Notes: generated by a model from the sequence alone, not told the origin. A stretch of DNA of 64,000 bases from Terracidiphilus sp. (GCA_050013695.1 JBEKET010000013.1:17917-81916); one strand, 5' to 3'. Positions 21,425 to 38,935 are shown, numbered from the stretch's first letter. Translations and numbers: made by a program.

Positions 21425-22162
21425 ATGGCCAGGGAATCGGGTGTTGCCGCAGTCGAGCAGGAGGAAGTGTCTTCTCAAGGAAATCTGGGCGTGATCCTCG
21501 TGGTCGAAGACGACCCAAGGATGCAGCGCGTGCTGACCAGGATGTTCCTCGCGGAGCACTACGATGTCATCACTGCGGGTGACGGACAAACCGGCCTTGA
21601 TCTATTCCGCTCGCGTCATCCCGTCGCCGTCGTACTCGATCTGATCCTGCCGCAGATATCGGGTCGTGAGTTATGCCAAAAGTTCAAAGCAATTTCCAGC
21701 GACACGCCTGTGCTTGTGGTCAGCGCGATTGCGGAAGTGGTAGACAAGGTGCTCCTGCTTGAACTGGGTGCGGACGATTACGTAACCAAGCCCTTCAGTC
21801 CACGCGAACTGATGGCGCGAGTGCAGGCTGCAATCCGCCGCCGGCGCAAGCCCGCCACTGCGACCTCTTTTCATTTTGCGGATTGTGAAGTGGACTTCAA
21901 GAAAATGACGGTTCACCGCAACGGCCATCCGATTCAACTCACTTCACATGAGTTCAAACTGCTCAAGTTTTTCACTGACCACGCGGAGCGAGTGCTCAGC
22001 CGCGAAGAACTCCTGAATGAGGTATGGGGCTACAACTGCTATCCGACTACCAGGACCGTTGACAATCAAATCCTCAAGCTTCGGCAGAAACTGGAACCGA
22101 ATCCCACAGACCCCCGCCACCTGCTGACCATCTACGGCGCCGGGTACAAATTCGTTCCCTGA
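21425..22162 (+). CDS. OmpR/PhoB-family response regulator
   Basis: ILVVEDD, VVLDLILP (phospho-Asp), GADDYVTKPF, wHTH with RTVDNQILKLRQKLE and TIYGAGYKF. ATG 21425 after GGAGG. Confidence 0.95.
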   Translation: MARESGVAAVEQEEVSSQGNLGVILVVEDDPRMQRVLTRMFLAEHYDVITAGDGQTGLDLFRSRHPVAVVLDLILPQISGRELCQKFKAISSDTPVLVVSAIAEVVDKVLLLELGADDYVTKPFSPRELMARVQAAIRRRRKPATATSFHFADCEVDFKKMTVHRNGHPIQLTSHEFKLLKFFTDHAERVLSREELLNEVWGYNCYPTTRTVDNQILKLRQKLEPNPTDPRHLLTIYGAGYKFVP

Positions 22163-22167
22163 TTGAG

Positions 22168-25529: not shown

Positions 25530-26260
25530 TGATGTGTGGAGACACTCCAATTCGGATCCGCTGTCTGATGTTCTGCGGATTTGCGTTTCTTTCACTGCTG
25601 GCTGGGGCGCAGGATGCGCAGGCTCCCCGGCTCGCGGAGTTGCATGCGCGCATTGAGCTCGCGCCGCGCCAGATGAAGGGCCATCCTCCCGCGGCAGTCC
25701 TTTGGCTAACGCAGCTTTCTGCCGATGCGGCCAGCCGGACTGTATCTCCCGGCCGCTTCACGCTGGTCCAGAAAAACCGCATGTTCACACCTCACCTGCT
25801 GGTTGTGCCGGTTGGGAGCGTTGTTGCGTTTCCCAACGCCGATCCTTTTTTTCACAACGTCTTTTCCCTATTCAACGGCAAGAGATTCGATCTCGGCCTA
25901 TATGAAGCAGGGAAGTCAAAAGACGTGGTTTTTTCCCGCGAGGGCGTGTCTTACATCTTCTGCAATATTCATCCGGAGATGAGCGCGGTTGTGCTCGCGC
26001 TCTCCACGCCCTATTTTGCCATCGCTGATCAGAACGAAAATGTTCATCTCGACAATATCCCCGCCGGAGAATACGAACTTCACGCGTGGGTCGAGGGACT
26101 GACGCAGCCGGATCTGGATCGCCTGGTGCGGCGCGTACGTCTCGGTCCCGGCAAATCGGAGTCAATCACGCTTGACGCGCGCGACCTTTCGCGTGAGCCG
26201 CCTGGTCATCTGAACAAATTTGGCCAACCGTATGCGCAGCCTGCAAAGCCCGATTACTGA
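25529..26260 (+). CDS. Secreted cupredoxin (type-1 copper) with C-terminal Ig-like domain
   Basis: FPNADPFFHNVFS and FCNIHPEM give His/Cys/His/Met ligands; TGATG coupling. Confidence 0.75.
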   Translation: MMCGDTPIRIRCLMFCGFAFLSLLAGAQDAQAPRLAELHARIELAPRQMKGHPPAAVLWLTQLSADAASRTVSPGRFTLVQKNRMFTPHLLVVPVGSVVAFPNADPFFHNVFSLFNGKRFDLGLYEAGKSKDVVFSREGVSYIFCNIHPEMSAVVLALSTPYFAIADQNENVHLDNIPAGEYELHAWVEGLTQPDLDRLVRRVRLGPGKSESITLDARDLSREPPGHLNKFGQPYAQPAKPDY

Positions 26261-27182
26261 TCGAAGAGGATTGGTTGGATTCCCACGCCACAGTCGGCGA
26301 ATTGGTTGGAAATAGGCCGACGTTTTCGCAATCTGCGAGACTCGTCGGTAGGCGATAAACCTTCAATCCAGTCAGTTGCAAGGCGATGTGCCACAGGAAA
26401 GCCGCATTGCTGACGTTGCGGCGCCATAGACGCTTCGGATCCTGCAGCAGCCGGTGCAGCCAATGGAATCCCATCTTCTTGACCCACGGAGCACAATCTC
26501 TGACTCGCCCAGTGTGAAAATCAAATGCGGCGCCCACTCCGAGCATCAGGCGCGTCTCCAGGCGCGGCAGCATCCTGCGCATGAAGAGGTCCTGTCTCGG
26601 TGCGCCGATTCCTACCCAGATGATGTCCGGTTTGCACGCCCTGATGGTCTGCGCAAGATCACTCTCTTCCGCAGCGGTCAACTCGCGAAAAGGTGGTGTG
26701 AAACTGCCGGCAATGCGCGTCCATGGAAATTGCCAAAGCATATTCGCGGCGAGTTCGCCTGCAACGCCATCTTTTCCCCCATAAAAGAAATGCCGATAGT
26801 CTGCGAATTCTTTCCGGCTGAACATTTCGTACATCAGTGCGGGGCCCGTGACCGCCTCCATCGAAACATGTTTCTGAAGCCGGCCGACCCAAACCGTCGG
26901 GGTACCGTCCGGTATCGCAATCGCAGCTTCGGCGAATGTGCGCGCCACATCCGGATTGCGCCGAGCTGAAAGAACCCCATTGACGTCAATGGCGCACACG
27001 TAGCCCTTCTTACCGGATCGGAGAATTCGCTTCACGCGCGAAAGCGCCACCTCCAGATTCAGCGCGTCAACAGCAACGCCGAGCACGTTGGCACAGGGGC
27101 CACGGAAGGAAGACACTCGCTCCGTGCCCGGATCTTCAGCGCCCAACTTGAGCCCAGCGGCGCTATGCGACGTCAGGCTCAT
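26166..27182 (-). CDS. WecB/TagA/CpsF-family glycosyltransferase (GT26)
   Basis: IPDGTPTVW, HFFYGG, PDIIWVGIGAPRQD, GVGAAFDF, RLLQDPKRLWRR. Start 27182 (ATGA overlap with flippase). Confidence 0.9.
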   Translation of the reverse strand: MSLTSHSAAGLKLGAEDPGTERVSSFRGPCANVLGVAVDALNLEVALSRVKRILRSGKKGYVCAIDVNGVLSARRNPDVARTFAEAAIAIPDGTPTVWVGRLQKHVSMEAVTGPALMYEMFSRKEFADYRHFFYGGKDGVAGELAANMLWQFPWTRIAGSFTPPFRELTAAEESDLAQTIRACKPDIIWVGIGAPRQDLFMRRMLPRLETRLMLGVGAAFDFHTGRVRDCAPWVKKMGFHWLHRLLQDPKRLWRRNVSNAAFLWHIALQLTGLKVYRLPTSLADCENVGLFPTNSPTVAWESNQSSSISNRALQAAHTVGQICSDDQAAHAKGRARQA

Positions 27183-28528
27183 TGTGCCTCCTTGTAGAGC
27201 GCCGCTGAAAATGCAGAGTAAGTGCGTTCTTTGGCACGACCGGTGAGCAACACCAGGAGCGGTATGTAGACCAGGCAAGTGATTGGCCCATAGAGCATGC
27301 GGCTCCATGCCATTCCTTGCAGGCCATAGTGCCTCGCAAGCCAACCCATTGATAAGGTCATGAGCGCACCACCTGCCACGGTGAAACACGTCAATATCTT
27401 CGGTCTGCCAAGTGCCAGCATGGAATAGGACCCTGTAACTCCAAGGCCCGCAAATGCTGTGCTCCAAACAATGATTGGGAGAAGCGGAGCGCACCTCTGC
27501 GCAAGTTCAATCCCTCCCCACCTGTGAAGGACTGCCGGACCGAATGCCATCACGGCCGCAGAGCCAAGGACCACAATCAGCACGTTGGCGCAAAACACTA
27601 ACAGGATCGTCCGCCGCACCGCGGCCCGGTCATGGAGCGCGTGTTGAACTGAGACGCGCGGAAAGAGGAAGTGCAATCCCGCCGCGGCCAACCCGTAGAT
27701 CGGCTGCGAAAGTTGCACGCACAGGGAATATGCGGTCACGGCGGCCGCTCCGAAAACGACCCCGGCAATAAGCCTGTCAACCTGTCCGAATACCAAGCCG
27801 GAGACCGCTTGAATCCATGCAAACACGCCGAAATGCAATAGTGCCCGAGTTGTCTCGCGATCAAGAGCCGGCAACAGGTTGTCTGCACTCAACAGTGCGC
27901 GAAGTTGCGCAATCTGGAGCCACACACCAACAGTCGATACCACAACAGTTACTGCCAGAACACTGGCCACCGTGTGGGTGACAAACGGCAGCGCCGCTGC
28001 TCCGGCCAGGCTCAGAAGGCGCGCAATTGCGCTGATCTTAACGGCGCTTCCATAGCGCTCATAGGCGCGCTGAGTGCTGACGCAAACAGTCTCAATTGCG
28101 CGCACAGGAATGAGCAGGCATGCGATGCGGAGACTCCAAAGGCAATCGGCCCGCATTCCTGAAGTTCCGCTTACAAGCTTCGTTGTCGCGAAGGGCGCGA
28201 GAAACCAAGCCACTAGCGCCAGTGCGCAGCCGAGAAAAAGATGGATGGCCATGCTGCTTCGCACCGCGCGGATCACGTTCCGGAAATTGCCGGTCGCTCG
28301 CTGCATGGCTACGATGCGGATGTTTGCGTCACCAAACCCCGATGCAACAATTGCTCCCGTGCTGATGGTTGAAACAGCAATCATCCATACGCCATATCGA
28401 TCGGTCCCCAAACCCCTCAGAGCAAGTGGAGCAATGGCAAGCATTCCGAGCGGGTACGCCACGTAGTCCAGCACTCCGTAAATGGCATTCGAGATATGGG
28501 TTTTCAGGTTTGCTGCGTGTTGGCTCAA
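27179..28528 (-). CDS. Wzx-like oligosaccharide flippase (MOP superfamily)
   Basis: Many TMs; LGTDRYGVW, LLHFG.FAW, GQVDRLIAG, VTAYS patterns. TTG start. Confidence 0.85.
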   Translation of the reverse strand: MSQHAANLKTHISNAIYGVLDYVAYPLGMLAIAPLALRGLGTDRYGVWMIAVSTISTGAIVASGFGDANIRIVAMQRATGNFRNVIRAVRSSMAIHLFLGCALALVAWFLAPFATTKLVSGTSGMRADCLWSLRIACLLIPVRAIETVCVSTQRAYERYGSAVKISAIARLLSLAGAAALPFVTHTVASVLAVTVVVSTVGVWLQIAQLRALLSADNLLPALDRETTRALLHFGVFAWIQAVSGLVFGQVDRLIAGVVFGAAAVTAYSLCVQLSQPIYGLAAAGLHFLFPRVSVQHALHDRAAVRRTILLVFCANVLIVVLGSAAVMAFGPAVLHRWGGIELAQRCAPLLPIIVWSTAFAGLGVTGSYSMLALGRPKILTCFTVAGGALMTLSMGWLARHYGLQGMAWSRMLYGPITCLVYIPLLVLLTGRAKERTYSAFSAALYKEAQ

Positions 28529-28576: not shown

Positions 28577-28614
28577 TGTCAGGACGTAGTCAAATGAATG
28601 TCATCTGTTTGTCA
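28577..28614 (+). promoter_or_regulatory. 11-bp-phased TGTCA array D upstream of the flippase
   Basis: TGTCA 28577, AGTCA 28588, TGTCA 28599, TGTCA 28610; putative minus-strand -10 TACTGT at 28556-28551, 20 bp away. Confidence 0.8.
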
Positions 28615-28631: not shown

Positions 28632-29960
28632 CTATTCACGTGACAGATCTGCTCGGTCAGTGCGAGGTTCGAGTCGATGCCTCGCCCACAAACGCGACCT
28701 GGGCATCGGCTCCCGGTGTTGTGGTAATGAAAGAAAGAGCAGGGCGGCAAGGAGTGCAATTACGGCGTTTCCAGCGATGACCGCCGTATAACCGAATTGA
28801 ACGATGCAACTCCCAGTGAGCGCAGCTGTACCAGCCTGGCAGAGCGCTCCGGAGAGATTCTGAACGGCGGAAGCTGTGCTGCGCTCTTCCTCGGGAATAT
28901 GCTCCATCAGGTAGCGATAGATGCCTGGGCCGCACATCCATTGCGCTCCATTGAATGCCAAAAAGCTGGCGACACTCAACGGAACCGTCCTCGACGCGGC
29001 GAGCAGAAGAAGAAGTGCGGCCGTCATCATTTGCGCCAGCGATACTCCCTTGAGTGTTCCGAGCCGCCGATACAAAAGAGGAGTTGACAGCACAGCGGCA
29101 AATTGAAGAAGCTGCGAGACGGAAAATACCACTCCCACCCGGCTGAGGGAGAGCCCAAGAGTTTGCTGCAGGTAGACGGCTCCGAAAATTGTGAAGGATC
29201 CCGTTACGACATTCCAGAGGATGAAGGGCGGCAGGAAGCGTTTAAGAAACGGGTGGAACATGCGCAGCCCATGTGTAACGCTCGCGGGCTTTGCATCGCG
29301 CGTCAGATTTGCAAGCGGCCACGCGCCGAGCATTACGGCGCCACAAGCGCAAAGCAGCACAACGCGAATTCCTGCGACCGGGGAAGTCCCTGCACTACTC
29401 GTTTGAAGAAGGCGAGGAAGATAGCCGCCGGCCAAGCCGGCCAGCGATCCCATGCCGATTCCAGTTGCAAAGACAATGCTGAAACCGGAAGCACGGTTCT
29501 GCTCATTGGTGTATTTGGCCACCGCGGGTGAAAAACAAATCGGCCAGAAGCAAAGAGCAAGGCCCGTCAAAAACGCGAGACCGATCTGGGCCGGAGTCCA
29601 GAGTGAGACTACTCGCAGGCCGCAGATCAACGGCCCGCCAAGAAATGAAATGAGCAGCGGCCTTCGGAATCCACGCCGCCGTACAAGAATCATGGCGGGG
29701 ATTGTTCCGACCACATTTCCCAGCGTCATGGACGCCAAAATTTGTCCAATGACCCGTTCGTTGAAATGGAGATCGGTCAGGTAAAGATTGAAGAGAAAGA
29801 GGAATAAACCAAAACCAAAATCAAAGAAAAACGCTGCCGCGAAAAACTTCCAGAAATCTGCTGAGTACCGGCGCATCCACGCAGGGGCGATCCTCATCCA
29901 TCGCGATTGTCCGCCTGGCTGCGCGTGCTGATCCTGCTCGCAGGCTTCAGTCATCAGCAT
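28632..29960 (-). CDS. MFS transporter
   Basis: About 12 TMs; loop motifs VRRRGFRRPL and YRRLGTLK; start overlaps kinase stop by 7 nt. Confidence 0.85.
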   Translation of the reverse strand: MLMTEACEQDQHAQPGGQSRWMRIAPAWMRRYSADFWKFFAAAFFFDFGFGLFLFLFNLYLTDLHFNERVIGQILASMTLGNVVGTIPAMILVRRRGFRRPLLISFLGGPLICGLRVVSLWTPAQIGLAFLTGLALCFWPICFSPAVAKYTNEQNRASGFSIVFATGIGMGSLAGLAGGYLPRLLQTSSAGTSPVAGIRVVLLCACGAVMLGAWPLANLTRDAKPASVTHGLRMFHPFLKRFLPPFILWNVVTGSFTIFGAVYLQQTLGLSLSRVGVVFSVSQLLQFAAVLSTPLLYRRLGTLKGVSLAQMMTAALLLLLAASRTVPLSVASFLAFNGAQWMCGPGIYRYLMEHIPEEERSTASAVQNLSGALCQAGTAALTGSCIVQFGYTAVIAGNAVIALLAALLFLSLPQHREPMPRSRLWARHRLEPRTDRADLSRE

Positions 29961-31021
29961 CCCTCGTGCACTAATTCGCGGAGCCTCTCGACCGCCCAGT
30001 CAAGATCCGTATAGCGCAGCTCGAATACACCTCCTTCGAGTAGCCGGTCAAACATGCGTGCCTGGCGATTGCAAAGTTCCGGTACCGAGCTTGCGCGTTG
30101 GAGCATGTAAAGCCTGGCCACTTCAACAGGAAACGGAACTAACTCGTGCCGGTCAACATTGCGATTGAGAAAGACGACGTGCTTTATATGCGCGGTTGAC
30201 GAGGTCTTGATACTCGGAGCAGATGCGGTTGCAAACTCGATCGAAGGCTTGCCAACCTCTGCACGCTTCATCACGGGCCTTCCGCGCAATTCCGGAAAGA
30301 GGCTTTCAGAAGAAGATCGAAACCGAACCATGCTGGAGTCGCCCACGATCAATCGGTCATCCCTCCCGTCGACCAGAAAACTCCCATCGTCGGTGATGTA
30401 GGTCCATCCCGTGCGCGCGCAAGCATACGCGAGAGTTGATTTTCCCGCGCCTGAATCTCCACAAAACAACAGGCCGGCACCATCCAATTCCACTGAGGCT
30501 GCATGAATTCCCGACGCATAACCATGAACAAGCTGTCCCATGATCAATGACATCAGAAATGCGAAGCGGAAGTAGGCAGGGTGGTCGAGCGTTGAGCGGG
30601 TCACCCAGATATTTGAGGTTGCATGAAGGTAATCCGAGACCGCAAAATTGTCGCCGTCCGCGATGTGAGTAGCCAGGAGTCCTCTCATGCGGGTCATTGG
30701 CATAGGTGGGCAGTCCCTCACACTTCCGCCCGTGACACCGATGCTCAGCCTGATCGGTTCAACATCAAATAGCTTCTGAAATCTGCCCATTCCCTCCGCC
30801 GCGATATCCAGAATCTGCCTGGAATTCGTGGATATGATCACAGGAAAGCCGAGTGGATAGAAGGTTCCCTTCAGGTTGTATTCGACGCGCGAGAGATACG
30901 GATCGCAAAACTCAATCGGCTCCGAGCGGCTCCATGCTTGCATGAGCTGCTCGGTCGTCAGCACATTAAATGTCTGAACCGGCCAGGTTTCCAGTGTGCT
31001 CTCAATGGTTTTCATTTTCAT
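29954..31021 (-). CDS. HPr-kinase-related P-loop kinase
   Basis: GIHAASV...LLFCGDSGAGKSTLAYAC...YITDD matches the HprK-like His / Walker A / Asp-Asp pattern; no HprK N-terminal domain recognised. Confidence 0.7.
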   Translation of the reverse strand: MKMKTIESTLETWPVQTFNVLTTEQLMQAWSRSEPIEFCDPYLSRVEYNLKGTFYPLGFPVIISTNSRQILDIAAEGMGRFQKLFDVEPIRLSIGVTGGSVRDCPPMPMTRMRGLLATHIADGDNFAVSDYLHATSNIWVTRSTLDHPAYFRFAFLMSLIMGQLVHGYASGIHAASVELDGAGLLFCGDSGAGKSTLAYACARTGWTYITDDGSFLVDGRDDRLIVGDSSMVRFRSSSESLFPELRGRPVMKRAEVGKPSIEFATASAPSIKTSSTAHIKHVVFLNRNVDRHELVPFPVEVARLYMLQRASSVPELCNRQARMFDRLLEGGVFELRYTDLDWAVERLRELVHEGC

Positions 31022-34000
31022 CAGAATTGGTATTTCAGCGCCACTTGAACGATGCGCGGGTTATTCGACTTCCCAGTGATCAAGCCAAATGGTGGACTGG
31101 AAGAACCTAAGATGGCCCCATTCCCCGGATTCGCAAAGTTTGGCCTGTTGGTCAGATTGAAGAACTCCGCGCGAAAGTGAACGCTCTGCGATTCAGTGAC
31201 GGGAACAGTTCTCTCCGCCGCCATATCCAGGTTGAACTGCCCCGGTCCGCGGACAATCCCCACGCCGCTGTTTCCGAAATCCGTATCGGCGGGGCCGGTG
31301 CCATACGGCGCTTCCGGTGCGGTGGTGATTGCGGCAGGGTTGAGATAGCCGTTGATCACGCGTGAATACAGAGAGCCGCTTGTGGTAATGCGCGAGCCGC
31401 TCAGTTGCGCGCGGTCTTCAAAGGGGTAGTTACCGTAGACCGCGCCGGCAGATTCATCGATCAAGGTAATGGGTGTTCCACTTTGCAGCACGAGGATTCC
31501 CGATGTCTGCCAGCCGGACTCAATTTGTCGAACCATGCTGCCCATCGAGCGAACGGAAGGCACGTCGTAATTGAAGCTGAGAACACCGCGATGCGTGCGA
31601 TCGAAATCGGTGAGCCCATATGCTTGCCGCGGGTTATGCTGATCGTTCGTCAACAGCCACAACTCGAATACCTGGTTTCCTGAGGAGCCGCTCGTCTCGT
31701 CGAGATTCTTCGACCATGTATAGCTGCCAAGAAACTGAAGGCCGTGGCTCAGACGTTTGGTCACGCTCGCCTGCAGCGAGTTGTAGTCCGAACTGTACGC
31801 CGTTTGGTAAACCAGAGAATCCGGTCCAATGCCCTGGTACGGAGCACGCTGAACAACATTCGCGACCGAGTTCGACGTCTCGCCGTACACGGGATTTGTA
31901 GGACTCGCCAACAGGCTCTGGTTAAACTCCGCGCCCCCGGCCACGTGAATGGAGCGCGTGCCCACGTATCCCACCTCGGCAAGATAATCGCGGAAGAAAG
32001 CAAACTGCGCATTCAGGTTATATTCCTCTGTATAGGGGTCCACGATATGCGTGGATATGCCGGTCACCGTCGGTCCGCCGCCGGGAATTCGCGGAATGAA
32101 GATCGGATAGCTCGACTGGCTCGGCAGCAGCGGGCTGAAGGGTTGCGCGAGTGTCGCTCCCGCGTTCTGCGATCCTTCATAAAACTGGCTTGTTGAAAAG
32201 GGCGGCTGCCCTACAAGGTTCTCAGCCAACCCGGCCGCCAAACGATCGAAGTAAATTCCGAATCCGCCACGTACAACCACTGTTGGTTTGTCTGTCAGGC
32301 GATAAGCAAAGCCCAATCGAGGAGAAACATCGTGGTGATCAGTCGGCCAAAGACCAGGCATGTGCGATTGAAGCACGCCTTGCGGAACCGTTCCGGAAAA
32401 GTTGGAAGCGACCACGAATCCGCTCAGACTGCCGGATGCAGGTGCGCTCAATGTCGCCAGGGTCGGGTCGAACGTAACCAGTCTGCCGTGAATCTCTGAT
32501 GGAGGACTGAATATCTCATAGCGCAGGCCGGCATTCACGGTGAGCTGCGGCGTCAGACGCACATCATCCTGAACGAAGCCGGCAAAGTCGGTATACCGCT
32601 CGTCCTTGCGGAACAATCCCGAACTGCCGTCACTGAAAGACACATTGCTCTCATCGTTTGGGCTGCCGTTCTGTGCCGCACTTTCACCCAGAAGAAAGTC
32701 GTTGAATGTGTTGATATCAAGTAGTCCACTAGCAGAATACGGCGCATTTACCATCACTTGATGGCGCTTTACCTCGCCCCCGAAACGGATGGAATGATTG
32801 TGTCGCGTGAGCGAAAGCATATCCTGCGCAATAAAGCTGTTTGTCCGCTGCGCTTGCGACGGAGTTCCGGCATCACCGATAGTGAACAACCCGTTCACGG
32901 TGATTCCAGGAGCGGCAATCCCCGCGCCCGACGTGCCTGTCGGAGATTGAGTGCCAATATCGGAAGCGAGGATTGGATTCGCCACAACTGCGACGCCGTC
33001 AAATCGCATGTATCCGGCGCGTGCCACGTTGATCATGTTTGAGTTCAACACATGAGTGTCCGCGACAACGGCCATCGCATTTTGATCCAGTTCATTCGTG
33101 CCCCACCCCGGAACATTGGCCGCGTTCGGAGAAAAGGCTTCGACTGTTGGCGCGCGAGAGTAGAAAAATCTCTCGGAGATTTCATTCTTGCTCGTCAGCG
33201 CGTGATCGATGTTGGCTGTGTACTGATCCTCGTTGTAGGTGGAAGGCGGAGCATACGTTGATTCGCCGACCGGTATCTGGCCTGCCGTTGCTCCGAGCAG
33301 GATCTGGGGACTTGGGATTGCGAATTGGCCGCTCGGCAACTTGAAATTCAACAAGCTCAATGCCACCGGATTGATATTCGATCCGTCACATGCCATCTGC
33401 GTACCGCCTGCGGAAGTTGGGTAGGCGCAGAATTGCGCGCCGAGAGTAGCGGCGGAACGGTCAGCGGTGAGCTGAGGCAATACGACGGTGGTCTCCGTTC
33501 CCTCGCCATTGCTCGAACGCAAACCCTGGTATGCGCCGAAGAAGAAAGTCTTGTCCTTGCGAATCGGACCGCCAACCGCAAATCCAAACTGATTCTGTTT
33601 CAAATCAGGGCGAGGCTGGTCGTCAAGCTTGGAAAAAAAGTCATTCGCATTAAGTGCGTCGTTGCGCAGAAACTCCCATACGGTGCCGTGCACATGATCT
33701 GTTCCGGTCTTGCTGATGACGTCGACATTCGCGCCGGTCCCTCGTCCGTAGGTCGCATCGTAGTTGCCGGTTTGCACTTTGAATTCCTGAATGGTGTCCG
33801 GCGCAGGAACTGCGACTCCCACTTCTTCGCCATCCGAGGCCGCGGAGTTCTGCGAAAGATTATTCGCGTCCACACCGTTGAACTGAATGTTGTTGGCGGT
33901 TGTCTTGCTGCCGTTCGATTCCACGTCCTGGGTTCCGCGTCCCAGTTCAGTCGCATCCGGCAGTCCCACCACAACCCCTGGCGAAAGCGACAGGATCTGT

Positions 34001-34467
34001 GTGAAGTTCCGGTTGGAAAGAGGAAGCGCCTCGATTGCTTTCTCATCAACCGCGCGCCCAAGAGATGAGCTCTGGGTGCTGGCAATTTCCGTGTCTGCAG
34101 TGACCGCGACACTCGTGTCAACAGTCGCCAGCTTAAGGTGAAACTCGATCGCGCTGGTCTCGCTGACGACTACCGGAATCGAGCGCAATTTGCTTTCCGC
34201 AAACCCATCCACCTTGACGGACGAGCGATATTCGCCGGGCGGCAACAGGGCGACAGTGAAGAGCCCTGTCCCATCGGTGATCACCGATCGAGACACATCG
34301 GTTGCTTCGTTCTCCACGGTCACTGAGACGTTGGGCACCGGTCGCCCCGAGGGATCGATTACCGATCCATGGATTGCTCCCGTGCCGGGGGCCTGACCCC
34401 AGACCAAAGCCACCCGCATCAATAACGGGACCAGGACGCAAGCTGCCCGCAATGAAATGTTGCGCAT
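31021..34467 (-). CDS. TonB-dependent receptor (Oar-like, N-terminal carboxypeptidase-regulatory-like domain)
   Basis: Signal peptide, GAIHGSVIDPSG, LPLSNRNF, IQEFKVQT..YDA.YGR, EFLRND, C-terminal PRIVQVALKYQF. Confidence 0.92.
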   Translation of the reverse strand: MRNISLRAACVLVPLLMRVALVWGQAPGTGAIHGSVIDPSGRPVPNVSVTVENEATDVSRSVITDGTGLFTVALLPPGEYRSSVKVDGFAESKLRSIPVVVSETSAIEFHLKLATVDTSVAVTADTEIASTQSSSLGRAVDEKAIEALPLSNRNFTQILSLSPGVVVGLPDATELGRGTQDVESNGSKTTANNIQFNGVDANNLSQNSAASDGEEVGVAVPAPDTIQEFKVQTGNYDATYGRGTGANVDVISKTGTDHVHGTVWEFLRNDALNANDFFSKLDDQPRPDLKQNQFGFAVGGPIRKDKTFFFGAYQGLRSSNGEGTETTVVLPQLTADRSAATLGAQFCAYPTSAGGTQMACDGSNINPVALSLLNFKLPSGQFAIPSPQILLGATAGQIPVGESTYAPPSTYNEDQYTANIDHALTSKNEISERFFYSRAPTVEAFSPNAANVPGWGTNELDQNAMAVVADTHVLNSNMINVARAGYMRFDGVAVVANPILASDIGTQSPTGTSGAGIAAPGITVNGLFTIGDAGTPSQAQRTNSFIAQDMLSLTRHNHSIRFGGEVKRHQVMVNAPYSASGLLDINTFNDFLLGESAAQNGSPNDESNVSFSDGSSGLFRKDERYTDFAGFVQDDVRLTPQLTVNAGLRYEIFSPPSEIHGRLVTFDPTLATLSAPASGSLSGFVVASNFSGTVPQGVLQSHMPGLWPTDHHDVSPRLGFAYRLTDKPTVVVRGGFGIYFDRLAAGLAENLVGQPPFSTSQFYEGSQNAGATLAQPFSPLLPSQSSYPIFIPRIPGGGPTVTGISTHIVDPYTEEYNLNAQFAFFRDYLAEVGYVGTRSIHVAGGAEFNQSLLASPTNPVYGETSNSVANVVQRAPYQGIGPDSLVYQTAYSSDYNSLQASVTKRLSHGLQFLGSYTWSKNLDETSGSSGNQVFELWLLTNDQHNPRQAYGLTDFDRTHRGVLSFNYDVPSVRSMGSMVRQIESGWQTSGILVLQSGTPITLIDESAGAVYGNYPFEDRAQLSGSRITTSGSLYSRVINGYLNPAAITTAPEAPYGTGPADTDFGNSGVGIVRGPGQFNLDMAAERTVPVTESQSVHFRAEFFNLTNRPNFANPGNGAILGSSSPPFGLITGKSNNPRIVQVALKYQF

Positions 34468-34532
34468 TTTCTTCGCCGCCTCACGTGGGGATATGACGCG
34501 GTTTCAGAATAGGAATGATTGGGTTGCTGACT

Positions 34533-34559
34533 TGTCAGCATCATGTCTTTCGATTGTCA
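34533..34559 (+). promoter_or_regulatory. 11-bp-phased TGTCA array E upstream of the TonB-dependent receptor
   Basis: TGTCA 34533, TGTCT 34544, TGTCA 34555; putative minus-strand -10 TATTCT at 34511-34506 (21 bp away); overlaps palindrome TGCTGAC-TT-GTCAGCA 34525-34540. Confidence 0.75.
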
Positions 34560-34760
34560 TTTGGAATCTGCGCCTTTAAGCAGCGGATTAATAACCGGAC
34601 CAGCTCGGCGCTTAAACCATAACGATCGGCGCCGCGCCCATCTCATCCAGTTCGTTCTGCGCTCTCCCGCACATCTATGCGGACTGCGCTCCAACTGCTG
34701 TGACTTACGTCCTAGTCCCGGGAGTGCGAGGCCAGCTAGGGTGGAGTGGAGAAGGACGCC

Positions 34761-35885
34761 ATGCTGCCAGATTTCACCTTTCCCCGCGAAGTTCAATCAA
34801 CGCCCAATCCGCCGAAGAAGAAGGCCCTCGTACGCAGATTGTTACCCGACCAATCTCAACAGGTTCGGCGCACGGTGCAGGTTGCCTTCCTTGCGCTCAA
34901 CGCATGGATCGGAGTGCAGTTCTTTCTCTGGGTCCGCTTTTTTGAGAGCCAGGGCAATTCTCTTTATGTGCCAAGGCCTGCCGGGGTCGACGGCTGGTTG
35001 CCGATCGCGGGACTGATGAATTTGCGATACTTTCTCACTAGCCGGCAGGTGCCTGCGGTCCATCCCGCGGCGATGGTGCTTTTTTGCGTTTTTCTCCTCA
35101 TCAGCCTGCTGGTGAAGAAGTCGTTCTGCTCCTGGCTTTGCCCTATTGGGACAGTCTCGGAGTTCCTTTGGAAGCTTGGGAGAAAACTGTTTGGCCGTAA
35201 CGTGACGCTGCCGAAGTGGGTCGACTTGCCACTCCGCAGTCTCAAATACCTTCTGCTCGCGTTCTTTGTTTTTATCGTCTTCACCATGCCGTCTCAGGAC
35301 CTGGGCGCGTTTCTCGGGTCACCGTTCGGGATCTTGGCGGACCTGAAAATGCTGAACTTTTTCCGTCACATCGGGCTGATGGGAATCGCCGTCCTTGCAA
35401 TCCTCACGGTGCTTTCGCTCTTCATCCAGAATTTCTGGTGCCGCTTTCTCTGTCCGTACGGCGCGCTGATGGGTATTGTCTCCAGCGTTAGCCCGGTAAA
35501 GATCCGCCGCGACACGGATGCCTGCATCGATTGCGGCAAATGCAGGAAGGCCTGCCCATCTCACCTTTCCGTGGATACGCTGATGCAGATTCGCTCCGTT
35601 GAATGCACCGGATGCATGGAGTGTGTTGCGGTTTGCCCGGTAGAAAATGCATTGCAGTTATCGCTTCCGCCCTGGCCGGATAGCTTGGTCGATCCTCGCC
35701 TGCCACAAGCAACGCGACTTCGCTGGCAGCGCCGCGCACTGAAGCCGCAGGTTGTGGCCGTAGTATTGGCGGTTGTCTTCTTTGGGCTTATTGGTGTGGC
35801 TCGCGCCACCGGTCATTGGCAGACCAACATTTCGCGTGCCGTCTATATGGATCTGGTTCCCAACGCGGACAACTACGACCACTGA
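34761..35885 (+). CDS. Membrane 4Fe-4S polyferredoxin (NapH/MauN/RdxA-like)
   Basis: TMs with FCSWLCP and WCRFLCP, plus two CxxCxxCxxxCP ferredoxin motifs. ATG 34761 after AAGGA. Confidence 0.85.
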   Translation: MLPDFTFPREVQSTPNPPKKKALVRRLLPDQSQQVRRTVQVAFLALNAWIGVQFFLWVRFFESQGNSLYVPRPAGVDGWLPIAGLMNLRYFLTSRQVPAVHPAAMVLFCVFLLISLLVKKSFCSWLCPIGTVSEFLWKLGRKLFGRNVTLPKWVDLPLRSLKYLLLAFFVFIVFTMPSQDLGAFLGSPFGILADLKMLNFFRHIGLMGIAVLAILTVLSLFIQNFWCRFLCPYGALMGIVSSVSPVKIRRDTDACIDCGKCRKACPSHLSVDTLMQIRSVECTGCMECVAVCPVENALQLSLPPWPDSLVDPRLPQATRLRWQRRALKPQVVAVVLAVVFFGLIGVARATGHWQTNISRAVYMDLVPNADNYDH

Positions 35886-36066
35886 GATGCCTGTGAGCCC
35901 ACCGACATCAGTCCGGTTGGTCGAGCGCCGGAGCGCCCGTAGACCATCGGCCTCTATTTCTTTTCACCTGCCTTTTTGCATGCACCCACCTGCGACTCAT
36001 GGCCCGGAACCGACTCCCTGCGAATCACTTGATTCAAGGTGCCAAGAGCCCATAGACTTCCATCCG

Positions 36067-36435
36067 TCATCCGTTTGGCTCGTTCTTTGGAAGCGAAGCG
36101 CAATCGTGAAGGTTCCGGGCGACCGAAACTGGAGCCTGAATCGGTTGAGTCTGGGCGGCTGGGAGCACCTGGCCGCAGTGGGAACAAATCTCCACACCGT
36201 TGATTTCGCGGGCCGGGGTCCAGTTCTGGTGCGAACTCTGGGGCGATGCTCCGGACTGCGGGGGGCCCGGACGCAGCAGAACCGACGTGACTTCGCGTTC
36301 CACCGTGATCTGGACCCGCCGGACGGTCTGGCGCGAGTCGGGCTGGTTCGATCCCGGCTGGCGCGCGTCCGGAGGTCCCGGGGTTTCCGCGTCCGAGATT
36401 TTCTGGCCGGGGTCATTGTTTACCCGAGACTTCAT
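36067..36435 (-). CDS. Small hypothetical protein (122 aa) with a CxxC motif
   Basis: ATG 36435 preceded by AAGGAG; RRVQITVERE..VLLR strand and CSHCG; divergent from the wHTH-TPR gene. Confidence 0.5.
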   Translation of the reverse strand: MKSRVNNDPGQKISDAETPGPPDARQPGSNQPDSRQTVRRVQITVEREVTSVLLRPGPPQSGASPQSSHQNWTPAREINGVEICSHCGQVLPAAQTQPIQAPVSVARNLHDCASLPKNEPNG

Positions 36436-36571
36436 CGGTACACTCCTTTTAAGACTGCGCGGGTCATTCAAGTCCAAACGGGGGCATCGGCGATTCTGAC
36501 TAGAACGCACATTGCCGGGGATTGTCTTGAATTCCTTTCTGAATTCTTTTGAAGAAGTTTGAAGGCGAGCT

Positions 36572-38935
36572 ATGTCCACAAATTTCAATAGCTTGTATCG
36601 CTTCGAAGGGTTCGAGCTTGACACCATAAAGCGGACCGTCGCGCGCAACGGTGAGCGAGTAATCGTGTCTCCCAAGGCATTTGAGGTGCTCGTTTACCTG
36701 GTGATGAACCCCGGCCGCCTGGTGACCAAGGAGGAGCTCATGAAGGCCGTTTGGCCGGACTCCTTCGTTGAAGAAGGCAACCTGGCCCAGCACATCAGCT
36801 CACTGCGCAAGGCATTCGGGGACAAGCCGGATCTGATAGTGACCACCCCCGGCCGGGGTTACCGCTTTGCCGCAATGGTCGAGCAGCACGCGTCGGGGCC
36901 GAGCTTTCTCGAGGCTCATCCCGGCCAGTTGCTGGTGCAGACAGTGCGCGAGCGCACACACATCGTGGTGGAGGAGACCGCGCCGGCGTCCATGGCGCCC
37001 GTTCCGGTCTTCGCGCTGCCCGCCGGACATGCCCGGATTCGCTGGAACCGGATTTACTGGATCGGGGCAATGATCGTGGCTTTGGCCCTGGTTGCCGGGA
37101 CCGCGACCTATCTGTGGCAGCGATTCGCGAATCCGCCTCAGCTTAGAAAGCTCGTAGTCGCGGAATTCATCAATTCCACAGGGGACGATGCCTTTAACAG
37201 TACCCTCAAGCGCGCGCTGGAGATCGATCTGGGCCAGTCCCCCTATATGGACGTGATGAGCGAGGGCGAAGCCGTGCGAACGCTGCAACTGATGGGCCGC
37301 GAACGCACCTCCGCCTTCACTCCGGATGTCGCCAAGGAAGCATGCGTGCGCAGCAACCGGCAGGTGCTTGTCACTGGAAACATTGCCAACGTGGGTCGCG
37401 AATATCTGCTCACGCTCGAAGCCACGGATTGCAATTCCGGCAAGCGGCTTTCGAGCGCCAAGGCCGAAGCGGAAAGCAAGGAAAAGGTGCTGGCGGCGCT
37501 GGATTCGGTCGCTCGGCATGTCCGCGCGGGGCTCGGCGAATCCAGAGTGTCGATCGAGAGCTTTCAGGTTCCCATCGAGCAGGCGACAACCACGTCGCTC
37601 GAGGCCCTCAAGTGGTATTCCGAGGGTTATTACCTGAATGCGCAAGAAGGCACGGACCGGCTGCCGTTCTTTCAAAAAGCGGTGGAACTGGACCCGCAGT
37701 TTGCCATGGCCTACGCTTCGATGGCCACCATTTACTACAACCAGAGTGAATTCAGGCTGGCGACACAGTATTACCAGAAGGCTTTCGACCTGAGCAGCCG
37801 CGTCAGCGAACGAGAGAAAATTGTCATCCAGGCTCATTACTATGCCGAGGGCCGTGCCGATCTCGAAAAGGGAATCCAGACATATCGACTATGGGCGGAG
37901 ACCTATCCGCATGATTGGGCGCCGTGGATAAATCTTGCTGATGAATACACCCAACTGGGGCAATATCCGTCTGCGATAACGGCAGCGCGGCAGGCATTGG
38001 AAATGGAACCGAAAGCGCCCATCAACTCGAGTGTTCTGGCCCGCGCATGCCGTCGCGCCGGCCGCTACGCCGAGGCCAAGACCATCGGGCAGCAGGCCAT
38101 CGACAGAAACGTGGATTCAACCGGCCTCCATGCCACGCTCTTCGATATTGCGTCCGCGGAAAACGATCGCGATGCCCTGGCGCGAGAAACCAGGTGGGCC
38201 CAGGATCATCCAGACGCGTGGTACCGGTGGTATTTTGTCGATCGCCAGGCGGAGGCGGCGATTTCAGCCGGAAAGTACCAGCAGGCCAAAGATCTCTTTC
38301 GCAGATCATACGAGATCGCGCAAAGCGAGAACCTGCCCGAAGCTGCCGATGATGTATTGCTCGATGAAGCGCAGCGGGAGTTTGCGCTGGGTATGCCTGC
38401 CGCGTCCCGTTCTACGCTTGAGAAGCTCGGCAAAGCAGACCAGGATTCAACGGAATACGCAGTCCTGCAAGCTGAATTTGGAAACACGTTGCCGGGAGAG
38501 CATTATCTGGCGGCTCACGCGGATTCAACCCATCTGGGCACGGTCCAGGCTTTTATCGATCTGCCCTTGGTGCGCGCAGCGCTGGCTTTGCAGCGCGGAA
38601 AACCGCTCGACGCCGTTGCGGCCCTGGAGCCGGCAGCGCCCTATGAGCTGGCTACTTATGACGTTCTCGCGCAAAGAGGCGAAGCCTATCTTGTGGCGAA
38701 ACAGGCGGAAATGGCGGCCAATGAGTTTAGAAAGATTCTCGCCAATCCCGGAATCGATCCGCTTTTGATTCAATATCCGCTCGCTCATCTCGGTTTGGCA
38801 CGCGCCTACGTGTTGCAGAACAAGACAACCGACAGCCGCAATGAATATAAGAAGTTTTTCGCGCTGTGGAAAGACGCCGACCCGGATGTTCCGGTTCTCA
38901 AACAGGCACGCCTCGAGTACACGCGATTGAAATGA
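36572..38935 (+). CDS. Transmembrane one-component regulator: CadC/ToxR-like wHTH + TM + periplasmic TPR region
   Basis: YRFEGFELD...VTKEELMKAVWPDSFVEEGNLAQHISSLRK...TTPGRGYRF; one TM; TPRs (KAVELDPQFAMAY). Confidence 0.9.
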   Translation: MSTNFNSLYRFEGFELDTIKRTVARNGERVIVSPKAFEVLVYLVMNPGRLVTKEELMKAVWPDSFVEEGNLAQHISSLRKAFGDKPDLIVTTPGRGYRFAAMVEQHASGPSFLEAHPGQLLVQTVRERTHIVVEETAPASMAPVPVFALPAGHARIRWNRIYWIGAMIVALALVAGTATYLWQRFANPPQLRKLVVAEFINSTGDDAFNSTLKRALEIDLGQSPYMDVMSEGEAVRTLQLMGRERTSAFTPDVAKEACVRSNRQVLVTGNIANVGREYLLTLEATDCNSGKRLSSAKAEAESKEKVLAALDSVARHVRAGLGESRVSIESFQVPIEQATTTSLEALKWYSEGYYLNAQEGTDRLPFFQKAVELDPQFAMAYASMATIYYNQSEFRLATQYYQKAFDLSSRVSEREKIVIQAHYYAEGRADLEKGIQTYRLWAETYPHDWAPWINLADEYTQLGQYPSAITAARQALEMEPKAPINSSVLARACRRAGRYAEAKTIGQQAIDRNVDSTGLHATLFDIASAENDRDALARETRWAQDHPDAWYRWYFVDRQAEAAISAGKYQQAKDLFRRSYEIAQSENLPEAADDVLLDEAQREFALGMPAASRSTLEKLGKADQDSTEYAVLQAEFGNTLPGEHYLAAHADSTHLGTVQAFIDLPLVRAALALQRGKPLDAVAALEPAAPYELATYDVLAQRGEAYLVAKQAEMAANEFRKILANPGIDPLLIQYPLAHLGLARAYVLQNKTTDSRNEYKKFFALWKDADPDVPVLKQARLEYTRLK

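Follow-up and report, generated by a model that had tools for sequence, protein, structure and literature searches.

A conserved TonB receptor, P-loop kinase and MFS transporter operon in a polysaccharide locus of Acidobacteriaceae, possibly an uptake-and-phosphorylation module

A TonB-dependent receptor, a P-loop kinase and a major facilitator superfamily (MFS) transporter are encoded by a real, tightly packed and previously undescribed three-gene operon in the 64,000-nucleotide stretch of DNA analysed here (the window). The operon, whose host is a peat-soil acidobacterium, might serve as an uptake-and-phosphorylate module of an Acidobacteriaceae capsule/exopolysaccharide regulon, with a product that decorates the polymer, a reading that we favour only tentatively. 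The three genes are arranged head to tail, all on the minus strand:

31021-34467, minus strand: TonB-dependent outer-membrane receptor, 1148 amino acids, with a signal peptide (CarboxypepD_reg, Plug and OMP_b-brl_4)
29954-31021, minus strand: cytoplasmic two-domain kinase of the HprK/PEPCK P-loop superfamily, 355 amino acids (profiles, alignment and fold)
28632-29954 or 28632-29960, minus strand: MFS transporter, 440-442 amino acids (MFS_1 profile)

Stop and start codons overlap at both junctions, as can be read directly from the sequence. The receptor stop codon (TGA, 31023-31021) and the kinase start codon (ATG, 31021-31019) form the TGATG reported in a first-pass annotation of this DNA, and the kinase might instead start at another in-frame ATG, at 31015. 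The overlap of the kinase with the MFS start, also claimed there, is likewise present: the kinase stop codon (TGA) occupies 29956-29954, so that the overlap is 7 nucleotides if the transporter starts at ATG 29960 and 1 nucleotide (again TGATG) if it starts at ATG 29954. The latter is probably the true start, because related loci favour the 1-nucleotide form. No terminator-like sites were found on the coding strand inside the operon, and there is no room for a peptide gene between its members.

Gene neighbourhoods were compared across 81 related species-level Acidobacteriaceae loci, with individual counts made over 61, 72 or 54 of them, and they agree with the earlier view of the trio as a coupled operon, which proves to be tight and conserved. 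The kinase adjoins the transporter in 56 of 61 loci, and their stop and start codons overlap by 1 nucleotide (TGATG, TAGTG or TAATG) in 57 of 72 and by 4 nucleotides in 7 more. This pair is the invariant core of the module. The receptor gene, whose orthologues share 52-89% identity, immediately precedes the kinase in 38 of 61 loci. Its overlap with the kinase is lineage-specific (6 of 54 loci), and the gap is always short (median 18 nucleotides). In about a third of the loci the receptor is absent or displaced, and import across the outer membrane is thus not obligatory. A near-identical fragment of the kinase transcript in one wetland metatranscriptome lends weak support to transcription of the operon.

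The first-pass annotation placed the trio inside a polysaccharide locus, and the flanking genes agree. A Wzx-like and a WecG/TagA-type gene follow on the same strand, and genes for a priming transferase (Bac_transf), a Wza-like OPX protein, a Wzz-like protein and a GT4 glycosyltransferase lie on the other side:

27179-28528, minus strand: Wzx-like repeat-unit flippase (profile matches)
26166-27494, minus strand: WecG/TagA/CpsF-family glycosyltransferase (profile matches), with a true start probably downstream of the first start codon of the ORF
24003-26260, plus strand: two conserved envelope proteins 3' of the histidine kinase gene (sequence reading)
21425-24006, plus strand: two-component system, composed of an OmpR/PhoB-family response regulator (21425-22162) and a CHASE4-HAMP histidine kinase (22168-24006)
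15517-21348, plus strand: Wza-like OPX (Poly_export and SLBB), Wzz/GNVR co-polymerase-like protein and GT4 glycosyltransferase (profiles)
14432-15700, plus strand: cytoplasmic NTP_transf_5 (PF14907) protein with a nucleotidyltransferase fold (profile)
13932-14426, plus strand: small periplasmic monohaem cytochrome c, motif CVACH
13564-13929, plus strand: small periplasmic CuA-type cupredoxin, motif HCSVFCGSGHGSM
11026-13282, minus strand: three-gene operon for a putative outer-membrane protein of 362 amino acids (OMP362, 12194-13282), a small cytochrome c with motif CSRCH (11895-12209) and a Bac_transf priming glycosylphosphotransferase (11026-11886)

The cupredoxin and cytochrome c genes (13564-14426) head an operon that runs on into the genes for NTP_transf_5, Wza, Wzz and GT4. 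Neither envelope protein matches a profile family. The first (508 amino acids, with a signal peptide, a coiled coil and a C-terminal ...GYKF) is a putative outer-membrane beta-barrel, and the second (231-257 amino acids) appears cupredoxin-like, judging from an FCNIHPEM motif and a weak fn3_3 match. Polysaccharide genes are found within 10 kb of the trio in 50 of 61 related loci. The outcome named earlier as fatal to the polysaccharide link, a trio occurring mostly without such genes, is therefore not what the neighbourhoods contain.

Short operator arrays precede genes of the window at these places:

34532-34559, minus strand: receptor array, TGACAAtcgaaAGACATgatgcTGACAA, 65-92 nucleotides upstream of the ATG
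28598-28614, minus strand: Wzx array, TGACAAacagaTGACAT and then TGACTA, 70-86 nucleotides upstream of the Wzx start
21357-21373, minus strand: response-regulator array, about 52-68 nucleotides upstream of the start and opposite in orientation to the gene
13312-13434, no strand assigned: divergent promoter region with two arrays, one facing the OMP gene (13312-13328, minus strand) and one facing the cupredoxin gene (13418-13434, plus strand)

The receptor array consists of three direct (T/A)GACA(A/T) hexamers with an 11-nucleotide period. It is probably the element that the first-pass annotation called array E; the three direct hexamers are there, but Tandem Repeats Finder (TRF) reports no tandem repeat. 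The window contains six array matches where 0.06 would be expected, each within a promoter region of the locus, and the loci of relatives contain 147 against 1.6 expected in 1.56 Mb (about 90-fold enrichment). An exact pair of TGACAA hexamers, 22 nucleotides apart, occurs at about -92/-70 of the receptor in 28 of 61 related loci, and most of the others carry a single TGACAA copy at a similar distance. In relatives the arrays sit upstream of the receptor, OMP362, Wzx and regulator genes. Wzx is preceded by an array in 17 of 26 relatives, in the same orientation, and the regulator gene in 25 of 36, always in the opposite one.

The arrays define one regulon. The operator is common to the trio, the Wzx-WecG operon, the OMP-cytochrome-Bac_transf operon, the cupredoxin-cytochrome-NTP_transf_5-Wza operon and the regulator gene. 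Helically phased direct repeats in several promoters, the regulator's own included, are what an OmpR/PhoB regulon should exhibit and are present here, and the hexamers resemble PhoB/OmpR operators in their 11-nucleotide period, in their position about 60-90 nucleotides upstream of start codons and in the presence of an apparently autoregulatory site. The Pho box of Escherichia coli is built of TGTCA direct repeats with an 11-nucleotide period, and the array core is also TGTCA. However, the response regulator, whose gene is better conserved than any other in the locus (70-90% identity), matches PhoB best among families yet falls under its cut-off, and the sensor is a CHASE4-HAMP histidine kinase rather than a PhoR-like one. 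The locus's own OmpR/PhoB-type regulator is a candidate that probably runs the regulon. Because the trio shares its operator with capsule/exopolysaccharide genes and is conserved with them in the family, it probably feeds or modifies that polymer.

The C-domain of the kinase (about residues 170-355) carries the P-loop of the HprK/PEP carboxykinase superfamily and follows an N-domain of about residues 20-168. All 20 homologues compared retain H173, G188-DSGAGKS-T196 and D211-D212, which in an alignment fall on the catalytic His, P-loop and Asp pair of L. casei HprK/P (1jb1). The best NCBIfam match is HprK_rel_A (TIGR04352), at 39.6 bits (E 3.1e-10) against a cut-off of 200, spanning residues 172-350 and model positions 99-280. 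Matches to Pfam Hpr_kinase_C (24.8 bits, cut-off 33.3) and to TIGR00679 for HprK/P (24.4 bits, cut-off 240) are also under threshold, and a precomputed Pfam match names 'ScmC', which belongs to a radical-SAM peptide cassette. In Foldseek searches the full model matches PEP carboxykinase and HprK/P, with ATP-dependent PEP carboxykinase best (E 2.5e-8, query-normalised TM 0.42-0.48). The N-domain alone has no significant relative in the PDB (best E 0.21; best PEPCK row E 3.7), and hence the substrate class is not readable from the fold. Its invariant residues (R111, R113, N66, N125 and D130) would suit a polar or anionic ligand. Neither a signal peptide nor a membrane-binding feature was seen in the kinase.

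Three known families were considered as homes for this protein, and each was set aside. It shares with HprK/P the catalytic His, the P-loop GDSGxGKS, the Asp-Asp pair and the C-domain fold, but its scores do not reach the Pfam and TIGRFAM cut-offs, Pfam finds no Hpr_kinase_N domain, and HprK structures align to the C-domain alone. Moreover, the neighbourhood differs: the window ORFs that were scanned include neither ptsH nor pts genes, and nothing ties the kinase to the phosphotransferase system. ATP-dependent PEPCK, a member of the same P-loop superfamily, has a metabolite as its substrate, and one member of the kinase family is named 'phosphoenolpyruvate carboxykinase (ATP)' by NCBI. However, PEPCK enzymes have about 510-540 residues rather than 355, identity is 11-15%, no PEPCK family matches, and the N-domain has no significant PEPCK match. 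Assignment to HprK-related kinase A is opposed by the score (39.6 versus 200 bits) and by neighbours that, in the window and the relatives inspected, include no lasso, PqqD, RRE or precursor genes.

All HprK-family kinases characterised by experiment act, to our knowledge, on a protein or peptide serine (HPr or lasso-peptide precursors) and never on a metabolite, which counts against the uptake-and-phosphorylate reading. The kinase might instead modify a ribosomal peptide that the MFS protein exports and the receptor re-imports, as with lasso peptides, or regulate the transporter or another protein in the manner of HprK. HprK_rel_A, the best family across the whole C-domain, accompanies PqqD-like peptide-binding proteins. 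This family match, the 'ScmC' match and the invariant translational coupling to the transporter, which could mean a physical kinase-carrier complex, are all consistent with such a role. We nevertheless consider it quite unlikely. No precursor-peptide gene, PqqD/RRE protein, lasso cyclase or leader protease was found in the window or the relatives inspected, the trio has no intergenic space for a peptide gene, the HprK-type scores are far under their cut-offs, and the N-domain bears no relation to its HprK/P counterpart.

The receptor has the Plug (E 1.6e-6) and 22-strand barrel (OMP_b-brl_4, E 5.8e-198, plus TonB_dep_Rec_b-barrel) domains of a TonB-dependent receptor, and the transporter matches MFS_1, a profile of about 12 helices, over residues 40-375 (E 3.9e-26). 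Neither has a relative in the PDB by sequence. An NCBIfam scan assigned the transporter to no MFS subfamily, and it is weakly similar to the anion:cation-symporter and organophosphate-antiporter subfamilies (E 1.2e-4 for the latter). The direction of transport is not readable from the sequence, a point against the uptake-and-phosphorylate reading. A sister clade has 17-18 loci in which the MFS gene is directly followed by one for a GDPD-HEAT (glycerophosphodiesterase-HEAT) phosphodiesterase with a signal peptide. This order resembles glpT-glpQ of E. coli and, by analogy, would speak for uptake. However, the GDPD gene is absent from the window clade, the similarity of the transporter to organophosphate antiporters is weak, and glycerol-3-phosphate would need no kinase.

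A receptor, an inner-membrane carrier and a kinase also form the standard layout of catabolic uptake. The trio could thus scavenge or recycle a nutrient without decorating the polymer, with the kinase trapping the imported compound for catabolism and the polysaccharide genes co-regulated through a common environmental signal. The substrate would be an organophosphate, an organic anion or a fragment of the cell's own polymer, taken up via the receptor and the MFS protein, with a periplasmic phosphodiesterase as an optional component. The weak likeness of the carrier to galactonate-type and PgtP-type proteins, the glpT-glpQ-like sister-clade order, the Pho box-like operator and the sub-threshold PhoB match fit this proposal. 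Yet no catabolic enzymes lie beside the trio, its kinase family is not known from catabolism, the histidine kinase is not PhoR-like, and the partners that persist through rearrangements of the locus are NTP_transf_5, Wza and the envelope proteins. On balance, scavenging without decoration seems improbable.

NTP_transf_5 is a recurrent partner of the kinase, lying within 10 kb of it in 34 of 61 loci. In arrangements like that of the window it falls just past the 10-kb flank; here it is 14 kb away in another operon, a distance that, with the missing GDPD gene, weighs against the uptake-and-phosphorylate reading. In some genomes the two genes adjoin each other or share an operon, in orders that include CuA-cytochrome c-kinase-NTP_transf_5-MFS (L084), NTP_transf_5-receptor-kinase-MFS (L055) and kinase-MFS-GDPD-NTP_transf_5 (L056 and L060). 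The protein, unnamed in the first-pass annotation, is a candidate for the activation or transfer step. We know of only one documented role for the kinase/NTP_transf_5 pairing, namely phosphorylation and then phosphoglycosylation of lasso peptides. The kinases PadeK, ThcoK and PsmK and the PF14907-type PsmN are similar to our pair in the genetic linkage of the two enzyme families and in kinase homology over the whole C-terminal part of the HprK_rel_A model. They differ in that the N-domain here is about 70 residues longer and unrelated, and that the partners here are an MFS protein and a TonB-dependent receptor in a polysaccharide regulon. Lasso-peptide kinases phosphorylate a peptide serine, and in pseudomycoidin biosynthesis a nucleotidyltransferase then adds a hexose to the phosphate (PMC8498205).

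This chemistry also suggests that the kinase and NTP_transf_5 might modify a lipid-linked repeat unit or another glycoconjugate directly at the cytoplasmic face. The kinase would phosphorylate a sugar hydroxyl and NTP_transf_5 would extend the phosphate; no solute would be imported, and the receptor would have a separate role. The MFS protein would be a flippase or exporter for the modified intermediate, and LtaA is an MFS protein that flips a glycolipid. Both enzymes are cytoplasmic by N-terminus reading and share regulation and location with Bac_transf, Wzx and glycosyltransferases, and about a third of loci dispense with the receptor. The pair is also documented to phosphorylate and then phosphoglycosylate the end of a polymer (PMC8498205). 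However, the locus already has a Wzx flippase, the kinase lacks a visible membrane-binding feature, most loci include the receptor in the operon, and the secreted phosphodiesterase of the sister clade fits uptake better. Furthermore, we know of no export role for TonB-dependent receptors. Direct modification is thus an unlikely explanation.

The first-pass annotation proposed an import-phosphorylate-activate route analogous to the LicB/LicA/LicC/LicD pathway of Haemophilus and Streptococcus. The logic of that analogy holds: proposed uptake, phosphorylation, a nucleotidyltransferase-fold enzyme and attachment to a surface glycan recur, with genes in or beside glycan loci in both cases. GlpQ supplies choline to the Lic pathway, and the sister-clade carrier is likewise accompanied by a secreted GDPD enzyme. 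It goes no further than logic, since the proteins here share no homology with LicB, LicA, LicC or LicD. The carrier is an MFS protein rather than a LicB-type permease, the kinase has an HprK/PEPCK-type P-loop rather than a choline-kinase/APH fold, the nucleotidyltransferase is of the PF14907 rather than the LicC type, and an outer-membrane receptor is added. Pfam and NCBIfam scans of the ORFs found no choline-kinase fold, LicB permease, LicC or LicD, and no LicD-like or other obvious final-step transferase.

We regard the import-phosphorylate-activate idea as plausible and the best of the readings, while judging it somewhat short of an even chance. A specific extracellular solute would cross the outer membrane through the receptor, and the solute or its periplasmic cleavage product would cross the inner membrane through the MFS protein. 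The kinase, whose output the conserved 1-nucleotide stop/start overlap would keep in a constant ratio to the carrier, would phosphorylate this small molecule with ATP on the cytoplasmic side. The product might then pass to NTP_transf_5 to yield a phosphodiester-linked substituent, which would be attached to the polymer that the neighbouring genes (Bac_transf, GT4, WecG, Wzx and Wza) produce. The OmpR/PhoB-type two-component system would co-induce the whole set through the triple TGACAA direct repeats, to which its response regulator would bind. This scheme has no role for the regulon's conserved cupredoxins and cytochromes, which counts against it.

A broader interpretation, which we consider somewhat unlikely, is that the kinase is an HprK-family member with a non-protein substrate that carries out carrier-coupled ('vectorial') phosphorylation with the MFS protein. 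The kinase and NTP_transf_5 would then make up a general phosphorylate-then-phosphodiester-link module, with which Acidobacteriaceae would add a group scavenged from the environment to their capsule under a dedicated two-component system. If so, it would be the first HprK-family kinase to act on a non-protein substrate, and the same two-component system would also control small copper and haem proteins.

Three consecutive ORFs called on the minus strand of the window span positions 28632-34467:

31021-34467, minus strand: TonB-dependent receptor, 1148 amino acids, with CarboxypepD_reg, Plug and an OMP_b-brl_4 barrel (E 5.8e-198)
29954-31021, minus strand: kinase, 355 amino acids, weak family matches only
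28632-29960, minus strand: MFS carrier, 442 amino acids, MFS_1 match

The first-pass annotation described stop/start overlaps at both junctions of this trio, and reading the sequence confirms them. The A of the receptor stop codon TGA (31023-31021) is the first base of the kinase ATG (31021-31019), with an alternative kinase ATG at 31015. At the second junction, an MFS start at the ATG at 29960 overlaps the kinase gene, which stops at 29956-29954, and a start at the ATG at 29954 shares the A of this stop codon. No terminator-like site was found on the coding strand inside the trio. RNA evidence consists of a single 198-nucleotide metatranscriptome contig, which maps to the kinase gene and is insufficient to establish co-transcription.

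The trio was also reported to lie inside a polysaccharide locus, and the three operons that surround it bear this out. On the same strand, 3' of the trio, are genes for a Wzx-like flippase and a WecG/TagA glycosyltransferase, on which a long plus-strand operon converges. The front of this operon codes for a CuA-type cupredoxin, a cytochrome c, the nucleotidyltransferase-fold protein NTP_transf_5, a Wza-like OPX protein, a Wzz-like protein and a GT4 transferase, and its end codes for an OmpR/PhoB-type response regulator, a CHASE4-HAMP histidine kinase, a 508-amino-acid protein and a 257-amino-acid cupredoxin-like protein. A third operon diverges from the cupredoxin gene and codes for a 362-amino-acid putative outer-membrane protein, a second cytochrome c and the priming glycosylphosphotransferase Bac_transf. 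This gene content identifies a Wzx/Wza-type polysaccharide locus with unusual extras, including the following:

13564-13929, plus strand: CuA-type cupredoxin, motif HCSVFCGSGHGSM
13932-14426, plus strand: cytochrome c (CVACH), directly after the cupredoxin gene
11895-12209, minus strand: secreted monohaem cytochrome c, 104 amino acids (CSRCH), flanked by the genes for the outer-membrane protein and Bac_transf
24003-26260, plus strand: the pair of 508- and 257-amino-acid proteins, 3' of the histidine kinase

The CuA protein heads a polysaccharide operon and is not part of a terminal oxidase or N2O reductase. The longest ORF at its site is a minus-strand frame of 169 amino acids (13326-13835, 'unk169') that is conserved in tblastn searches, yet it was rejected as an antisense shadow of the cupredoxin gene. 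Homologues of the 104-amino-acid cytochrome c, whose gene is shorter than the usual cut-off for ORF lists, occur in 45 of the related loci. In the 508-amino-acid protein, a signal peptide is combined with a long coiled coil and a C-terminus ending in GYKF, and its partner (231-257 amino acids) carries a cupredoxin-like FCNIHPEM motif; neither gave a family match. This pair travels with the two-component system in about 27-35 loci. Judged from their sequences, the 362- and 508-amino-acid products are putative outer-membrane or beta-barrel proteins, and the 257-amino-acid product is a putative cupredoxin-like protein.

Divergent from the receptor gene is a gene for a NapH/MauN-like membrane polyferredoxin (Fe-S; 34746-35885, plus strand). 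Because neither this gene nor the ORF at 35773-36552, which is likewise divergent from the receptor gene, is located next to the trio in any relative (tblastn), both were placed outside the system, and the polyferredoxin is probably unrelated to the trio. A 787-amino-acid Trans_reg_C and TPR regulator (36572-38935, plus strand), which has a strong though partial match, below cut-off, to TIGR04510 ('putative peptide modification system cyclase', E 2.8e-53), is not kept beside the trio in relatives. The window also carries a 16-nucleotide tandem repeat (GGATGAAACCAAGTGA, 43746-43780, 2.2 copies, 94% matches) at the stop of the gene for a 1522-amino-acid hybrid PAS histidine kinase. A glycan-degradation cluster (44662-53483) codes for GH3, an MFS_2 sugar carrier, a GH10 xylanase, a GH29 fucosidase with an F5/8 domain, GH18 and a metallo-beta-lactamase-fold protein. 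Genes in series for DUF4384, caspase (Peptidase_C14)-PEGA-TPR, CHASE2-adenylate/guanylate cyclase and DUF928 proteins (53404-59179, plus strand) have the appearance of a distinct signalling module.

The kinase belongs to a large family: of the candidates scored, one search gave 1,920 proteins and another 3,845 at E <= 0.001. All members with a named organism come from Acidobacteriaceae (Terracidiphilus, Occallatibacter, Granulicella, Acidisarcina, Silvibacterium and Edaphobacter), and a second protein search with a distant family member as query again returned this family only. When one genome per species was scanned, a kinase relative was present in 351 species, and the best 80 of these 351 plus four others were analysed. 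The window proteins were compared by tblastn with 81 non-redundant loci, and positions were counted in the 61 loci with full 10-kb flanks.

The MFS gene is located immediately 3' of the kinase gene in 56 of these 61 loci, whereas the receptor gene is immediately 5' in 38 and no more than a few kb away in about nine others. The stop and start codons of the kinase and MFS genes overlap by one nucleotide in 57 of 72 loci and by four in another 7, whereas the gap between receptor and kinase genes has a median of 18 nucleotides and the two overlap in just 6 of 54 loci. Thus, kinase and MFS carrier form the invariant core, predicted to be translationally coupled, and the receptor is a common addition that can be dispensed with. 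One or more of the window's polysaccharide genes have a homologue within 10 kb of the kinase gene in 50 of the 61 loci (in window-like loci, NTP_transf_5 falls just beyond this flank). The first-pass annotation had named a trio found mainly apart from polysaccharide genes as grounds for refutation, and these counts show the opposite.

Across many rearrangements, the kinase gene stays near those for the 362-amino-acid outer-membrane protein, the cupredoxin/cytochrome pair, NTP_transf_5 and the Wza-like protein (tblastn). Representative arrangements are as follows:

L084, one operon: CuA-cytochrome c-kinase-NTP_transf_5-MFS
L055: NTP_transf_5-receptor-kinase-MFS
L056, Granulicella mallensis, one strand, without receptor: Wza-Wzi-...-Wzx-GT4-WecG-GT9-kinase-MFS-GDPD/HEAT-NTP_transf_5-regulator-sensor-508-257
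L001, Occallatibacter riparius: trio, 224/506-amino-acid pair, two-component system and NTP_transf_5, with no intervening Wzx or WecG

One complete MAG chromosome (L053, 11189-15579) carries the kinase gene without receptor or MFS genes; NTP_transf_5 is directly 5' of it and three B12-binding radical SAM genes are 3'. In a 516-amino-acid metagenomic call from a 2.5-kb contig (P0139), Rieske [2Fe-2S] domains are fused to the kinase. Whether this fusion is genuine or results from merged calls, it places a further redox protein beside the kinase.

A candidate regulatory signal joins these genes. The first-pass annotation placed an array, termed array E, upstream of the trio, and phased direct hexamers, probably the array meant, are present 5' of the receptor gene. 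They are detectable only as spaced hexamers; TRF and generic repeat finding near 34300-36700 gave no convincing tandem repeat. On its own, TTGTCA is no more frequent in the window than expected (26 versus 28), and enrichment is confined to phased pairs. The pattern WGACAW-N5-WGACAW has 6 matches in the 64-kb window versus 0.06 expected, and all six are in promoter regions of the trio and polysaccharide locus:

13312-13328 and 13418-13434: arrays in the divergent outer-membrane protein/cupredoxin promoter region
21357-21373: array 5' of the regulator gene
28598-28614: array 5' of Wzx
34532-34559: array 5' of the receptor gene, whose three hexamers make two of the six matches

Among 1.56 Mb of related loci, the same pattern has 147 matches versus 1.6 in shuffles, and the consensus aaaTGACAA-N5-TGACA(A/T)-N6-GAC consists of three direct repeats with an 11-nucleotide period. 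The arrays are located about 60-90 nucleotides 5' of the receptor gene, the outer-membrane protein gene (28 of 47 loci) and Wzx (17 of 26), and they point the same way as the gene in every case. At the regulator gene, by contrast, the array (about 61 nucleotides 5', in 25 of 36 loci) always has the opposite orientation. Phased direct repeats together with a site at the regulator's own gene are characteristics of autoregulated OmpR/PhoB-type systems. No gene of the locus is better conserved than that of the local regulator (70-90% identity by tblastn), a generic OmpR/PhoB family member (PhoB, 199 bits versus a cut-off of 296); we infer that this regulator binds the arrays. The system is like a PhoB-type regulon in its regulation but is not a member. 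Through the shared array, a single regulon joins the trio to the priming transferase, flippase, NTP_transf_5 and export genes, and no other new finding argues as strongly for a role of the trio in the polymer. A rival reading, which we consider unlikely, has the trio scavenge or recycle a compound and share only its control with the polysaccharide genes.

The kinase itself scores 24.8 bits against Hpr_kinase_C, which is below cut-off, and 39.6 bits against HprK_rel_A (cut-off 200), with HprK_rel_B, ScmC and HprK lower still. No signal peptide was predicted. An alignment of 20 homologues has invariant H173, G188-D-S-G-x-G-K-x-T196 and D211-D212, and a PDB profile search aligns these with the catalytic His, P-loop and Asp pair of L. 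casei HprK/P (E 2.5e-5). Searching PDB sequences with the MFS carrier, receptor and NTP_transf_5 gave no match. The AlphaFold model of the kinase (pLDDT 85.7) best matches ATP-dependent PEP carboxykinases (E 2.5e-8, query-normalised TM 0.42-0.48) and resembles HprK/P in the C-domain only. These full-length Foldseek matches prompted a two-domain 'mini-PEPCK' reading, which was dropped because the N-domain modelled alone (residues 20-168, pLDDT 88.3) has no significant Foldseek match in the PDB (best E 0.21). Thus, the PEPCK resemblance is confined to the shared P-loop domain, and the N-domain, with invariant D40, P56-x-GFP60, N66, C104-P105, R111, R113, N125 and D130 in the 20 homologues, is a family-specific module. 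The kinase scores below the threshold of each named HprK-type family, and both the HprK N-domain and any lasso or RRE neighbours are missing. A new subfamily of the HprK superfamily is its best description. Its members are inconsistently annotated as 'hypothetical', 'aldolase', 'HPr kinase' or 'PEP carboxykinase'.

NTP_transf_5 (PF14907; 14432-15700, plus strand) presumably shares its Pfam family with the nucleotidyltransferase of lasso-peptide clusters. HprK homologues in such clusters phosphorylate the C-terminal serine of the precursor, and in pseudomycoidin biosynthesis an enzyme named just 'putative nucleotidyltransferase' then puts one or two hexoses on the phosphate (reviewed in PMC8498205). 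The pairing of kinase and NTP_transf_5 therefore has documented sequential chemistry, on a different substrate. The kinase might likewise act on a protein or peptide, in a RiPP-like or regulatory role. However, no lasso/RiPP B, C, RRE or precursor genes were found in the window or the relatives inspected, and the window has no other RiPP enzyme, which rules out such a cluster as the main reading, and we regard a protein or peptide substrate as rather improbable. The system resembles the lasso-peptide pair in its enzyme families and is not a member of that group.

A plasmid tblastn search gave weak matches in the P-loop region only, including one in Ensifer whose gene context was uninformative. 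The agnE1 gene of the agrocin 84 cluster (pAgK84, CP000632.1, 5764-6687), annotated as hypothetical, codes for an HprK-related P-loop protein (HprK_rel_A, E 3e-8) and adjoins agnE2, a truncated pyruvate-kinase-like gene. This weak match hints that HprK-related P-loop proteins may also occur in small-molecule pathways.

A secreted protein in a sister clade bears on the direction of transport. In 17-18 loci (L056, at 12327-14087, and the rest L060-L081), the MFS gene is immediately followed by a gene for a 587-amino-acid protein with a signal peptide, a glycerophosphodiesterase (GDPD) domain and HEAT repeats. The kinases of this clade are 41-45% identical to that of the window, where the GDPD/HEAT protein is absent. 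The arrangement mirrors glpT-glpQ, and in Haemophilus GlpQ supplies choline to the Lic pathway. Alternatively, a lipid-linked repeat unit could be phosphorylated and extended directly, with the MFS protein as its flippase, but we give this little credence; the secreted GDPD protein beside the MFS gene supports uptake and phosphodiester chemistry.

The reading that we rank first, and hold tentatively, makes the import-phosphorylate-activate proposal of the first-pass annotation more specific. The receptor would take up a solute across the outer membrane, the MFS carrier would bring it inward, and the coupled kinase would phosphorylate it. The product would then pass to NTP_transf_5 to yield a phosphodiester-linked substituent on the polymer, with all steps governed by the TGACAA regulon. 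This scheme is like LicABCD/GlpQ in its logic, and the system is not a member of that pathway. The conserved cupredoxins and cytochromes are accounted for by none of the models. We class the system as a module of uptake and kinase genes within a glycan locus, based on an undescribed subfamily of the HprK superfamily; our literature searches found no description of a receptor-kinase-MFS operon.

Acidobacteriaceae are among the most abundant bacteria in acidic soils and peat, where soil aggregation, desiccation tolerance and carbon storage depend in part on their capsules and exopolysaccharides. To our knowledge, almost nothing is known of how their polymers are built or regulated. The analysis defines a regulon shared across the family, whose clear DNA signature allows any acidobacterial genome to be screened for it, gives a large, inconsistently annotated kinase family a genomic context, and links surface-polysaccharide genes to two enzyme families known only from lasso-peptide tailoring. 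Since the locus occurs in cultured strains, these questions are directly testable. An imported metabolite as kinase substrate would extend what is known of HprK superfamily chemistry, and soil bacteria would then have a route to build environmental compounds into their surface.
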